Positions 27,576-34,400 of a stretch of 60,000 nt of DNA are shown here, one piece after another. Source of the stretch: Lytechinus pictus (taxonomy: Eukaryota); assembly GCF_037042905.1 (NCBI RefSeq), contig NC_087251.1:20896001-20956000 (forward strand), read 5' to 3'. Numbering within the stretch: the stretch's first letter is position 1; each line of letters starts with the position of its first letter. A program made the translations under genes and the position numbers. Below the pieces are notes generated by a model that saw only the letters and a program-made list of their open reading frames with translations, was not told where the DNA came from and did no database searches.

Positions 27576-29036
27576 AAAAAATCTTCATACCTTATTTCAT
27601 CTGGTTTGTTTTGTTCAAAGCTATATCCAGAAAAGCCATCCCCGAGTCGACTATTATTTCACTATTTTATTATTATATTGTAATGTCCCTTCAGCATTGT
27701 GAGCTACAGTAAATCAGCAAGTATATTCTTCTCAGTGTCATAAGCCTAAGGTAACATAACATTACACAGTCAAACTCCCACAGGGCAATGTAACACAAAG
27801 GCTTGCAATATAATGCAAAATCGAAACAAAAGGTCTGATTAGAAATGCACATGCAGCAATTATCTTTATTGGACATTTCCATTTTGCGATTAATCACAAA
27901 CATTTGCATTACGGGCCTTTGTCCATGTGCAGGGACTGATGTTTAATAATTGCTTTAACTTTCAAATCAAATTCTTGACTAAAGTAACTTATGTGAGGGT
28001 GATATAAGCAAGTTTGACTGTCTTCTCTAACTCCATAGTGCCCTATGCCCAAGATAACTCGGGCTAGGATACATGGGAATTGAAAATAATAGAAATCAAA
28101 CTGTGTACAAATGCTTGAATCTTGAACTTGTCAATGGAATGCGATTGACATAAAAAAAACCTTACTATAACATATAACCAAGTGAACAAAGGAGAACCAT
28201 TCACATGTTCTATTTCATGTTTTTTCCCCATGTAAAGTTAAATACACAACACAGCGTGCTTAGAAACGCCCGTATTAAGTGCCCTATAAATGTTTTGTAT
28301 TATCATTATTATTATTAACATGGTAATGATTTGCTATCAACTTAACCAAGTGGGAGCAAAGTTCAATTTCATTGACACAGATGATTAATAGATAATGAAT
28401 TGCTTTTATTGGGGTAGGGGACTTCCATTTGGTTAATTTTCTTTAAAAATATTGGGTCGATGATCAGTTGAACTTCTATAGAAAAATGAATTATTAAGTA
28501 AATTATTATCAACTATAATTGGTACTAATTGATTCAATCATTAATAATGAGAACAAAATGCAAGAGGTTATTTCATATAAAAAATAATAAATAGATCACA
28601 AACATTTCATAAATCATTTAAGCAAGCATTGATTTCATGAATAATAGGATGGCATAGGTTTAAGCTGCAGTCATCCATTATTGGGTAGTATAGCCAGTAT
28701 TTCATAAATTTAGAAGGGGTAAATTTTAATAGTCTCCAATAAATACATTACAGATCCATCTAGACATAACAAAACAGCCTGTCCCCCCCCCCCCTCCTCC
28801 CCCAATGAGCCACTGCTAAAATGTCTGAACTGCCAATTCCAAACAAATTCACCTACCAGGGTTCTTAGGCAACTTGATCAACATATCACGAAGAGGTATC
28901 TGCCGATACACTCCTTTTCAAATTCAAATGAGCATCCTGAGAATATCAAATGTGGTAATTCCTATTATTCAAGCATTATGGGTTTATCGTAACTGGACAA
29001 TCTTATATACCCAAAATGATGAACAGGTGATCTATA

Positions 29037-30006
29037 CAGTGCGTATCAAAAAAAAGTTTACACTTCGAAAAAATCCTGTAAAATTATACATTTGTAATAT
29101 CCTGATTTTTTTCCACATTTTAACATTGGTACAGATCCATTTAAGCAAATGACGATATAACTGTTGAAAAATATTTCCGCTTGAGTGAGCACCACTTACT
29201 TTTGAAAAGTTTGTGAAAAATGATTTGCGCAGAACTTTGAAATAGTTATGCGAAGTAAGTAGACCTTAATCATGAAGAACACGTGGAATCTAGCTAGTAA
29301 AATTGATTTGAAGCTATCTTTTTACCTTTTTTAACTTGCTTCTTTGCCCAAAACACTTCGAAGAGTGCGTTGCGCCCCACCCCATTCCCCACACACCAAG
29401 GCCATCGTGACGATATTTGCTTTACACTGAGCTGTGATTTACACGAAATGGCTTAGGCTTGATTTTCATTTTGTTAATCATTGTCAAGCTTGGGAAAAGT
29501 GTGGAGAAACAAGTATTAAAAGAAAAATGAAATGTTAACCCACTTTAGATGATAAAAACTTAGTGAAAAAATGCTGGAGATGTCTGATATAAACTTTTGT
29601 TCAGATTCAGTTGTGTCCTCGGATCCAGCTGGCAAGGTTGTGCTTACTCAGTGCTAAAATTTAAATTAGGGTGGCAAAATTGTTACAAAATCCTTGAATA
29701 TATCCGTTTTATTTTAATTGACTAAAAGTGCAAGGGAAATGTATGAGAAATGTTTCGCAGGGTAAGTTTGATTTCGCCCTTTCCACTTGACACAGCGTGA
29801 AAACGAGCATTTCTGCGCAAACAGATTTCTACGAGCTTTACAAAAATGGGCAGTGTTCACTCAAGTGTAACATTCTGTCAAAACTTTTACTTTCATTGGA
29901 AAGATGAGACCTAAACCCAAGATATGTGAAAAAATTACCCAAATGTTGTATATTTTTTAATTCCCAGGGCTTTTTCAAAGTGTAAACTTTTTTTTGATAC
30001 GCACTG
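29037..30006. mobile_element. Tc1/mariner-type non-autonomous element (970 bp)
   Basis: TIRs cagtgcgtatcaaaaaaaagtttacactt / aagtgtaaacttttttttgatacgcactg with TA on both sides. No transposase ORF. Confidence 0.9.
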
Positions 30007-30566
30007 TATATGGGTAAATTTGTAAAAATCTGCAATTCAAGTTTTGTGGTAATAGTATACTTCTACTTTACTCTATGATTACCACAGAGAGGTAAAATCA
30101 TTCATTAAAAAATCTATGCAGTTCAAAGAGTGTAACAGATCAAGGGTCTGTGTGCACTGTGTATACTGAATACGATAATAGCATGCAATATTTTCTTCAA
30201 GATCATAACAAGAATTGGATTAAACATAGTATCTTACTTCGCACTTTGTAAAATAAACAGGGGGCATAAAAATCAGAGAACAAAATTAATGAGATTAACA
30301 ACCTATACACAAGAATTTTAACAGAAAATAAGCACAATGACTACATATTTGTCAAAATTTATTTTTGCTTGAGTTGAGATTGAATTGTATGTTGCAAGGG
30401 AATCAGGGTAGGCCTATCTGCAATAAGTGAATTTCTTGAATGCTACCTTTTGGTAGCATTCAAGAGTATTCATACCAGAGTATATCCATGTAGCTGTATA
30501 GATCCTGATAGGAGATTAATGCTAATATCCTCACATAAGACGATCACAGATATCACAAATTTGGGT

Positions 30567-31033
30567 TAAATCAATGATAGTGTAGTAGGTTTCACGGTAC
30601 ACCATGTATCTTCCATGGGCAAATATTGGTCAAGTGTTGCTTGAAATTCAGGAATGCTTAGAAGCATACTGTAGGGCGATTCCATAAAATATATACGTCC
30701 GACCCCATATGTGTGAAACCTTAATAAAATTTTCTGTCTCTGATTTCTGGTTCTTTTGACAGTCCTGAAAAGGACCACCCAATCTCGACGTTTCGACAAG
30801 TGTGTTCTTGTCGTCCTCAGGAGAATGTACCGTGAAACCTACTACACTATTCTTCTTTGCCATGGAAACCTTCAGAAGTTACATAAATCAATGATGTACA
30901 TTTCATCTCAAGTTTGTTGAAATTCAGGAATGCTTAGAAGCATACTGTAGGGCAATTCCATAAAATATATACGTCCGACCCCATAAATGTGAAACCTTAA
31001 TAAAATTGTCTGTCTCTGATTCTTTTGACAGTC
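30567..31033. repeat. Direct duplication (~130 bp) plus 25-bp perfect inverted repeat around a Penelope-like remnant
   Basis: 30630-30764 is repeated at 30908-31033. 30577-30601 is the exact reverse complement of 30826-30850. taaatcaatgat precedes both copies. Confidence 0.85.
30781..30826 (-). ncRNA. Minimal type I hammerhead ribozyme motif (Penelope-like element type)
   Basis: Minus strand reads tctc-CTGAGGA-c-gacaag-aacaca-cttgtc-GAAA-cg-TC-gaga: conserved core, 6-bp stem II, palindromic ACGT stem III, GUC cleavage triplet and a 4-bp stem I. Confidence 0.75.
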
Positions 31034-31453
31034 TGTAATGCTCTCAAATTACCATCACTTGGTCAGTTTATGAAGTGAAGTAAAACTTGAGAAAAATGGA
31101 AGTTGTATGTACAAAAGGTTGATTATTTAACGGAATTGCCCTGTAAGCATTTCGTTTCTCTGCAGATATTCTGGTCTAATGTGGTATAGAGTAGCAGTAA
31201 ACTATTCATAGCTCTCATTGTTAGTATCAAAAGATTTCTGACTTCATGATCCAAACGCTACACCCTGGATATACAGCAACTATATCAGTAGTTAAGGTCT
31301 TCAACTGGTGCTGGTAAAGCCGCTGTGGCATATTGCCTTTAAATTGTGATTGCGAGAATGCATCAAATTTCCAATAAATATCTTAAATTCACAATGTCTG
31401 TTATCTTCATTATATCATCCATATGAATGAAACTTTGAAGGTAAACATCTCTT

Positions 31454-34400
31454 TCATTGCTCCTCCCCAAGTAAAGTGATCTGAGGGGAAAGAAGAGAAG
31501 AAAAGACAGAATAATATACTTCTTACAACTGCACAATCAAGACAACAAAATGAGAAGTGCAAGGCTTGTCCTCGTATTACTAAAATAATTTGGGGGCAGT
31601 TTCTTGAAACATTCGCAAGACTGAGATTATAATATCTCCTTGAAACATACGTTACTAACGTTTTAAATTGTGGACTGAATAATGGTAAAAAAGTCTAAAA
31701 AAGAAAGAAACATTACTATAGAGTATTGTTTTGCATGTTACCCCCAACAGGACAGAATCAAAGATTCCATTAACGGTTATTCAGTAATAGGCAACTACTT
31801 TTCGTCATGGATGCCTTCATTTTTAAATACAGTGTTGTTGTTTTTAGAAACAAATGCAAATAAATTTAAATTGATAATTATAACCATTCAAGTTAATTGC
31901 ATGAATGTGCATTGATGTAAGTGGGATGCTTAAAGGTTACAGATATAGTATCAAGAATACTTGAATTTACCTGTTTCATAAACTGTGCAGAATTCAGCAC
32001 TTCACTGCAGCCATACGTTATCTTCTTGCCTCCGCTTCCGGTGCTTGATTTACTCTATTTCAAAGCAAACACGCAAATGAAAAAAGACAAAATATTTGTA
32101 AAAACTTCAATGATGACAATGAGTCTCAAAGTTCAAAAAAGCTTTGGTGCTTCTATATTGCCTTACTTAAACAAATGAAAGTAAGTGGTGCATCAACTGA
32201 AATTGAGTTTTCAATGTGTTTTATACAATTTACAAATTAATTTCTTCCTCCGGGCAAAATTTCATAGAGAGACATTCCAGACACTTAGATTGCTTCATTA
32301 CAAGAAAGATCACAGGGACCTGTGTTATAAAGATTTGTGATTGATCCAATCAATCTGAACTGTGAAAAGTGATCTACATGTTTGTCATGATATTTCCATC
32401 TAAGAGGCAGATGAACTGTCCCTTAAAAAAAAAAAGGGATCCCTGCAAAATTATGCATGCACAGGTGCTTATCATAGAGAAAACTTTAAATTAACTTATA
32501 CATTCTAGATGAAGATTTCACTGGCATTCTATCATCTTGATTGATTAGACAAAACCCAATTCTTTGGAAGACAGTTCTGAAATTTAACACAAACTTAATG
32601 AAAAAGAAATTTACCTTGACATAGTCTAATAGATTCTGGTATTCTATATAGTTTCCTCCTCCAACTACAAACACAATGGCTTCCTGGTATGGGGTCTTGG
32701 TCCGGGGGACGGAAGAACTAAAACATGAGGAAAGACAATATCAGTAACATTTTGATATTTCTCTTTAAACAAATAAAGTTAAGATTGAAGGGTGACTATG
32801 AAGGTGAATCACATGTGGGTTGATTTAAACATAGCATATCTAATCTGCATGTTTGCATTATCAACCATGGTAATTTCTTGCAAATGATTATTGATTATGG
32901 TCAGTTACATTTGAGAAAAGACACAGAAACATTTCTTGACTATTCACTTTCCTGTGCATAATTTTCTCTCCCTTTTCTAATATATTCTTATTGTGAACAT
33001 GATGCTAAGCAACAGCATTTGGTAAGCTCACATTAAATATTAAAGAGTGTTTATTAGAATTAATGGTGTAATAATGGCAAGTTCATCATCAATTTGATTA
33101 TACGTACCTGTCTGTCATTCTTAGAAGCTTAGGATCAAAATATCTGTAATCGTCCGTTTCCTAACAACAAATGAAAACACAATATATATAATAGCGTAAT
33201 TCAAATAAAAAACTTGTTAACGTACTTTCTTAAAATCAAAAGAAAATCCAAAGATACTAAAATGAACATAATACACCACTTTTTGAAAAAGCCTCAAAAC
33301 TGAATGAAATAAATCTAGCTGATGAACAAAAATCATAAATATACAATTGCACACACATTCCCCATACAGAGCTACAAGACCTATGCTAAAACATACAAGG
33401 GACTCTTTTTTTATCTGGCAATTTAAAGATATATATTAAAGAAGGTTCAATATAAAATTGTAGGTAAGAAAAGAAAGGAAATCTTGAACAGTACTACAGT
33501 ATGTATGGAACGTAAGGCAGGATCTCCTTGAATGAAAATAAAACAAATTCATGATAATAGTTCATAAAATCATGACATTTGATTGGTGGAAAGCAAATCT
33601 GATTTGTATCTATTTATTAAAAAAAGTTCAAGAAAACAATGATTATAATACAATTGCAAATCTCTGATTGGATCATTGCATATTCTTAATACAGTGCTAC
33701 TTACTGTATTTGACTTCAGCTCCATTAGAGAATCCACAACTCTTGTGACAGGGAGATTCTAAGTTAACAACAATAAATAAAAAGGAAATTTATAAATGAA
33801 ACAACATAATAGGGAAAGGAAAATACATTCATACTTGTTATAATAATAGCTCTGTTGAGATTGAGAGAGTTGATATATATCTACTCACATGTTTCTTGAC
33901 CACAAAGTTCTTTACACCTTCCATGACAAAATTGGATCCTGTACTCATGAGTTTAGAGAACATTCCTACTGTCTTCGTTCCTCCACCTCCATACTGGCTA
34001 GGTGGAGCAGCCATCTTACTGAAAGCTCTACAAATATGAAAGAGATTCATCAAGTGGTATTTGTAGATGCCTTGAAAGTTATATAATGAAAATTACAATG
34101 TATTTTCATTGTGCATTTTTCATTTGCATGTTTAAATGTGCTTGTAAAAATAAATAAACAGAAGATGTGAGATTGGGACATTTCTGAGTATATTGACTGT
34201 CTTTTGTTCTCAGGGAAATGAATAAATGTTAAGTATAGTAAATAACTGCATAATTATACAAATTCAAAATGTGATTAAAAAACCATAAATGTACCAAAAA
34301 TATCAAACTTACTTCCATCTCTTGATATAATCCAATGGTGCTAGATTACAGCCGGCTGCTTCTAATGCTGTTCTGTATTGCTCAACTTCCGACTGTAAAA

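Follow-up and report, generated by a model that had tools for sequence, protein, structure and literature searches.

A hammerhead ribozyme in the SCFD1 3′ UTR is probably a young, mostly inactive passenger of a Penelope-like element

The window analyzed here, a stretch of 60,000 nt of DNA taken as a whole, contains a hammerhead ribozyme in the 3′ UTR of SCFD1. According to our analysis, this hammerhead belongs to a young Penelope-like element (PLE) insertion and is probably a mostly inactive passenger, without a conserved role in the gene. For SCFD1 itself the insertion would be of little consequence, given that hundreds of such recent fragments exist and that the gene is also expressed in its absence.

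Read on the minus strand from 30826 to 30781, the sequence comprises stem I UCUC at 30824-30821, CUGAGGA with its C3 at 30820, one extra C, a 6-bp stem II, GAAA, CG, UC and the closing GAGA, with a predicted cut at 30787/30786. Every part of the complete, sense-oriented core listed for the SCFD1 strand in the original prediction is present. The motif has the boxes of a minimal hammerhead (CUGANGA, GAAA and a UH cut triplet) and its geometry (helix I of 4 bp, helix II of 6 bp closed by G10.1-C11.1, the extra C at 9/10.1 and an ACGU palindromic remnant of stem III); it also has its placement, since the identical motif occurs once per 2826-bp PLE tandem unit, adjoining the RT/GIY-YIG ORF. A descriptor search of the 60-kb window returned this single match, in line with the one copy claimed, though the 38-nt core has 121 exact copies in the 812-Mb genome. 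In 150 third-order Markov shuffles we obtained 0.067 loose descriptor matches per window and none with a palindromic stem III; these shuffles and the genome copy number rule out a chance motif. The hammerhead 46-mer folds with z = -2.81. No Rfam family matched the whole window at gathering score and none of the Rfam hammerhead families matched at E up to 10, the only matches near the motif being weak and unrelated.

Table 1. Coordinates of the features discussed, in window positions
Feature	Position	Strand	Basis or remark
Target-site duplication (TSD), upstream copy, 12 nt	30884..30895	.	repeat family D5, 100% identical, spacing 317
Target-site duplication, downstream copy	30567..30578	.	repeat family D5
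Inverted arm, element about +87 to +143 (PLE tail and ORF start), antisense to SCFD1	30827..30883	+	57/57 identical to locus L187
Minimal type I hammerhead ribozyme	30781..30826	-	descriptor match; 38-nt core exact at 121 genome places
Histone-type stem-loop without its last C, where the 130-nt duplication begins	30762..30776	-	weak Rfam Histone3 match in intact copy; window sequence
130-nt copy of host sequence from just upstream (30908-31033), inside the element	30632..30761	-	repeat families D1 and D3, 95% identical; alignment
Rest of forward arm, element +56 to about +110	30577..30631	-	3 differences in 54 nt from nearest copy
25-bp perfect inverted repeat (I1), 30577-30601 with 30826-30850	30577..30850	.	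mean pair probability 0.97-0.99
Coding part of last SCFD1 exon, TGA at 31456-31454	31454..31480	-	splice joint 31480/31971 in 4/4 runs
AATAAA named in the original prediction	30358..30363	-	AATGAA in X5, X6, X15, X20; RNA continues past
Older, unrelated MITE-like short repeat with terminal inverted repeats (I2)	30949..31142	.	loose RNA ends at 30950, 31099
609-nt stretch absent from X15 contig (own species); removes the hammerhead	30587..31195	.	one contig, depth 48.6; 10/12 microhomology at ends

The 23-mer that follows the core has 372 exact copies genome-wide. In this family the hammerhead lies in the 5′ UTR, or pseudo-LTR, of an intact PLE, whose tandem units have a period of 2826 bp and an intact 807-aa ORF beginning 123 nt after C3. 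With C3 of the core numbered 0, the element is laid out as hammerhead from -6 to +39, cut at +33/+34 and ATG at +123. The ORF matches RVT_1 in Pfam (E 1.2e-11). Its C-terminal GVYRIPCECGKVYIG motif was read as GIY-YIG from the sequence and an alignment; the Pfam scan of the ORF gave no GIY-YIG match, and PF01541 is precomputed on 3 of the 120 listed homologs. The closest named protein is from Lytechinus pictus (97% identity). The ORF is also 39% identical to an Anolis protein across its length (810 aligned residues), and this full-length similarity would tentatively suggest membership of the Penelope/Poseidon clade. In intact units, an initiator-like TCATTC with its A at -6 follows a TATA box at a distance of 31 nt, and the two together would form the element promoter.

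Copies have their 3′ ends either near +110 or between +139 and +146, in agreement with the pair of RT start sites and the tail reported for the Anolis carolinensis Poseidon element PAc (Frangieh et al., 2024, PMC11167929). PLE insertions with a TSD, inverted arms and such 3′ ends are described in PMC8557442 and PMC11167929. Further traits of EN+ PLEs are found here, namely one ORF that combines an RT with a GIY-YIG endonuclease at its C-terminus, copies in full or partial tandem, 5′-truncated arms in inverted orientation and an optional tail of 30-40 nt. The family is a canonical PLE carrying the minimal hammerhead of PMC4209133 (Cervera and De la Pena, 2014), and the Penelope-like origin proposed for this minimal type I hammerhead is borne out by intact elements with the identical motif. 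A non-LTR retrozyme tandem was ruled out, as the window has 1 motif and the family tandem units encode the 807-aa protein. Among the loci surveyed, a near-identical head-to-head fold-back copy with two opposed hammerhead arms is present on several contigs (L090, L093, L097, L101, L146, L163, L193 and L198). At L031, L039 and L040, a PLE fragment lies beside or inside the ORFs of another retroelement with RT and RNase H.

The window insertion is a TSD-flanked, truncated and partly inverted PLE piece of 317 nt. In mRNA order, the TSD (30895-30884) is followed by the inverted arm (30883-30827), the forward arm running from the predicted start through the hammerhead to 30762, the host copy (30761-30632), the remaining forward arm to 30577 and the second TSD (30578-30567). 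In the mRNA, the 25-bp inverted repeat of the two arms is predicted to pair into a helix enclosing the hammerhead. Compared with their nearest sampled relatives, the pieces differ at 3/54, 0/57 and 0/66 positions (about 2% divergence), and the insertion is therefore young. The core is intact in 23 of the 36 sampled copies that span the ribozyme, 14 of the 36 being identical over 42 nt. An intact core therefore requires no selection, it is what about 2% divergence leads one to expect, and selection preserving the core of the window copy was ruled out on these counts.

The anatomy can be accounted for by a PLE insertion in which the GIY-YIG nuclease of the element would nick an AT-rich site, after which its RT would prime on both DNA ends from its two habitual internal sites (about +110 and +140). 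One arm would be copied to the 5′ end of uncut element RNA, and the 130-nt flank piece would be copied into the insertion during or after the event. The hammerhead of the window begins where the transcription start of the element is predicted. Its start at -6/-7 thus points to derivation from uncut RNA, and a template of this kind would explain why the copy starts at the predicted start site with the whole ribozyme.

The site is empty in a related species (organism B). A contig from run X6 joins 30568 to 30886, with a single TSD and without exactly 317 nt; this empty site is seen in one contig, the other run from organism B (X5) having no listed piece across it. In the own species, the X15 contig joins 30586 to 31196 and departs from the genomic sequence where the last intron is spliced, and is therefore probably mRNA of a haplotype without the ribozyme. 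The join sits in a 10/12 microhomology and retains a few element bases, which fits a deletion after insertion. Splicing was rejected, as the ends are not GT-AG on the SCFD1 strand and there is no plus-strand RNA in the flanking unique sequence that would accompany GT-AG splicing on the plus strand; a genomic deletion is therefore preferred, though a library template switch could also yield such a join. Of the traits of domesticated hammerheads, conservation at the orthologous site is contradicted by organism B (one contig), and within-species fixation with conservation above the flanks by the deletion form in X15. The filled, deleted and empty natural alleles permit a clean test of the effect of the ribozyme on a host mRNA.

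The host gene is of the Sec1/Sly1 type: 2 of 4 exon translations match PF00995 and 1 matches yeast Sly1 (1mqs_A). We take it to be SCFD1 from these matches and from sequence features. Its last three introns are backed by RNA joints. The stop ends at 31454, which places the hammerhead 628 nt downstream, as against the roughly 630 nt given previously. Between the stop and the hammerhead we found no AATAAA or ATTAAA. The AATAAA given as the first signal (30358-30363) is indeed in the window; however, it reads AATGAA in all four runs (X5, X6, X15 and X20). RNA continues past 30363-30358 (X1 contig 29989-30606) and is still present below 30100. Sense reads extend to at least 28500, so the SCFD1 UTR may be long, and an AATAAA lies at 28410. 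Two further multi-copy repeats lie within the apparent 3′ UTR (29001-30002 and 30949-31142), and repeats of both types are transcribed on both strands elsewhere. The second of these, the MITE-like repeat, is also found in organism B (contigs of X5 and X6). A possible upstream 3′ end lies at 31138 on the minus strand, where 5 of 12 molecules stop in X19; no such end was seen in X20 or X21. A Pfam scan of 8 other window ORFs, seeking a neighbouring gene, gave no matches.

The hammerhead is, at least in part, in SCFD1 mRNA. As claimed in the original prediction, it lies in sense orientation within a transcribed 3′ UTR, and RNA continues on both sides of the insertion. Three stranded, rRNA-depleted raw runs (X19, X20 and X21, about 6% of each read) were analyzed. 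In the unique sequence below the insertion, sense depth is 5.9 in X19, 11.5 in X20 and 1.65 in X21, with antisense depth under 1 and zero in the neighbouring introns; above it, sense depth is 25.6, 6.7 and 10.3, respectively. Comparing the bins 31172-31338 (above) and 30337-30503 (below), depth falls 4- to 6-fold over the insertion in X19 and X21 and rises in X20. A second reading of X20 gave sense depths of 10.8-14.2 below and 4.4-10.1 above. The fall in X19 and X21 could reflect cutting, upstream polyadenylation, haplotype mismatch or noise of the 6% sample. Spliced contigs of X1 enter the insertion from both sides at depths of 20.4 and 20 (exons 17.3), in a library where poly(A) selection, if used, would hide cut molecules. 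No pile-up of ends was seen at 30786/30787 in the three raw runs or in the contig runs, fragmented libraries being a weak test of this. Over 30671-30837 sense depth is about 80-fold, compared with about 10 at the locus itself, in a bin that also holds another repeat; the reads over the motif derive mostly from other copies.

In secondary-structure computations, the extra C of the monomer pairs with the catalytic G12 at p = 0.99, and the SCFD1 monomer would have no helix III. By secondary-structure energies only, the active dimer has -20.3 kcal/mol against -27.4 for two monomers, which makes it about 7 kcal/mol less stable. These monomer and dimer energies agree with PMC4209133, where a single PLE minimal hammerhead gave no cleavage in vitro, and the latency foreseen for the monomer is thus upheld. 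For the Anolis PLE hammerhead, PMC11167929 reports cleavage that required the protein of the element. Cutting of SCFD1 mRNA would need a second ribozyme RNA in trans or the element protein, and the bulk of this mRNA would therefore remain uncut. In the tandem RNA of the element itself the motif is likely to cut, at 40 nt from the cap, given how often new copies have their first base exactly at the cut.

This last point comes from a survey of 5′ ends in the family, covering 93 of the 445 matches to a 24-mer at +80, with 82 left after removal of shared flanks. The ends peak at -6/-5 (11 copies), the predicted start site, and again exactly at +34 (7 copies, all with different flanks). That 7 of the 32 ends between +10 and +79 fall on the pre-specified +34 has a binomial p of 3e-7. 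Genome-wide, matched patterns with a transversion just before the start gave 0 starts at +33, 51 at +34, 8 at +35 and 5 at +36. Of the 51 copies at +34, 30 were fetched and 26 scored; 23 truly start there, 10 of them sharing one flank, which leaves 13 after merging and makes the independent count about half. Our results suggest, from these genomic junctions, that the minimal hammerhead cuts the element RNA in vivo. Three other origins of the peak were rejected: a splice acceptor (no AG before +34, varied flanks), RT stalling at the foot of helix I (which would give about +38) and nuclease cutting at ATT (which would be +37). In the literature searched we found no published link of PLE copy starts to the hammerhead cut, although supplements could hold one; a method for detection of cut ends is given in PMC8782182. 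In vivo cutting by metazoan PLE minimal hammerheads is called open in PMC4209133 and PMC8557442, and the genome-wide, base-precise surplus of insertions starting at the cut in this active family, whose tandem arrays are intact, offers a way to test it in vivo. Among the surveyed loci (L049-L078 and L082-L201), the fold-back copies L122 and L129 have both arms starting at the cut. One insertion starting at the cut site was multiplied with its flank (L113, L115, L117, L120, L121, L123, L125, L131, L138 and L139), probably inside another mobile element.

A different reading of the window copy is conditional cutting of the filled SCFD1 allele in trans wherever RNA or protein of the element abounds, such as in the germ line or in embryos, with output lowered, the insertion mildly harmful and its deletion favoured. 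We consider this unlikely. The depth falls in X19 and X21 are compatible with it, but X20 and X1 show no fall and no ends pile up. Partner RNAs would be at hand, given that family RNA is abundant and that the motif is identical to copies of a family with a sharp start peak (51 against 0, 8 and 5); however, the dimer is the less stable form by the 7 kcal/mol given above. In the mRNA context, stem I is predicted at p 0.5-0.7 and stem II at 0.93, yet the 25-bp helix would keep the cut halves together. Because the forward arm does not reach the ORF start and is interrupted by the 130 nt, it has only part of the protein-binding region described for the Anolis element (PMC11167929). Expression of the deletion form in X15 would follow from selection against the insertion, but a deletion between microhomologies can also drift without selection. 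There is likewise only a small chance that the hammerhead both cuts in vivo and is trans-activated inside the host mRNA when the transposon is expressed; if true, activity of the transposon would lead directly to clipping of the SCFD1 mRNA that the filled allele produces, and the three alleles (filled, deleted and empty) would be a natural test series for transposon-triggered cleavage of a host mRNA.

It is very improbable that the hammerhead was co-opted as a regulated switch removing the poly(A) tail of SCFD1, like the rodent Clec2 3′ UTR hammerhead. Its sense orientation, intact core and position in a transcribed UTR would suit such a role, but nothing sets the motif apart from the 120 other exact copies and the window has no second copy as a partner in cis. 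The poly(A)-removing control put forward in the original prediction is not supported as a conserved SCFD1 switch, because the insertion is young, absent in organism B and deleted on an expressed haplotype of the own species (X15), no ends pile up at 30786/30787 and the named AATAAA lacks conservation (AATGAA). Marginally less probable still is a motif lying beyond the main poly(A) site, with most SCFD1 mRNA lacking the hammerhead. In X20 and X21 the UTR is less deeply covered than the coding exons already above the insertion; this, the further fall in X19 and X21, and the X19 molecules ending at 31138 (5/12) point that way, but sense-only RNA is present in the unique sequence below the insertion in 3/3 raw runs with the neighbouring introns at zero, and contig depth is level on both sides in X1, X5, X6 and X15. 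We therefore retain the reading of a mostly inactive PLE passenger.

As in the PLE pseudo-LTR minimal hammerheads of PMC4209133, the boxes, the helices and the pseudo-LTR location are those described above; helix II has 6 bp here, as in Drosophila, against 7-8 in the Schistosoma families. Unlike those hammerheads, the window copy lies in a host mRNA 3′ UTR, and whereas that paper reports no evidence of in vivo cutting, family junctions here pile up at the cut site. With PAc, the family shares the RT and C-terminal GIY-YIG ORF, tandem arrays, a hammerhead near the 5′ end of the element RNA, AT-rich targets and a tail delimited by two internal RT start sites spaced about 30 nt; we infer that the 39%-identical Anolis protein is that of PAc itself. 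In contrast with PAc, the first ATG (+123) follows the ribozyme, which puts the hammerhead in the 5′ UTR instead of the ORF, and a histone-type stem-loop with a downstream element comes after it. According to PMC11167929, PAc had no RNA reads ending at the cut, whereas genomic copies here often start there. The 3′ UTR hammerhead of Clec2 (discontinuous type III) and the intronic type I hammerheads of amniotes, for example in RECK, also sit in a non-coding part of a host transcript; according to PMC6155905 they are conserved across species and not minimal, whereas the window one is young, minimal, polymorphic and absent in a related species. Animal non-LTR retrozymes (Li, Clavereau and Pollet, 2026, bioRxiv 10.64898/2026.07.22.740005) have a type I hammerhead related to PLE pseudo-LTRs and are described as excluded from exons and introns. 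They are non-coding tandem repeats, whereas the window holds a single fragment of a protein-coding autonomous PLE, without a tandem unit.

After the hammerhead, the element carries a 16-nt stem-loop, 10 nt and then CAAGAAAGA (e.g., L079:6132-6172, minus strand), and the same layout of stem-loop, 10 nt and CAAGAAAGA is found downstream of a histone gene in this genome. Judged from its sequence, the parent element thus appears to have the layout for replication-dependent histone 3′ processing, a mechanism described in PMC5054213. The complete signal, with both parts and the 10-nt spacing, is present in 52 of 74 sampled copies, and 5 of the 74 have at least 2 changes in the 9-mer. On an intact copy, Rfam Histone3 scores 16.9 bits, below the cut-off of 34 (E 0.074), and the 5′ flank is not A-rich. 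In the literature searched we found no histone-type 3′ signals in PLEs, although supplements could hold one. In the window copy (30776-30609, minus strand) the signal is broken twice, by the 130-nt duplication at the base of the stem and by changes at 2 of 9 positions of the CAAGAAAGA-type downstream element (30617-30609), one of which is shared with copy L183. An intact histone-type signal might end the SCFD1 transcript without a poly(A) tail, so that its loss while the adjacent hammerhead stayed intact gives a hint, from a single case recognized post hoc, as to which one the host can tolerate. Full histone-type 3′ signals that are not behind a histone ORF are also present around position 1500 of L202-L205. 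Of these, L204 and L205 lie about 4.6 kb from each other in inverted orientation, each behind the same 164-aa acidic ORF, and are possibly another mobile element using histone 3′ processing.
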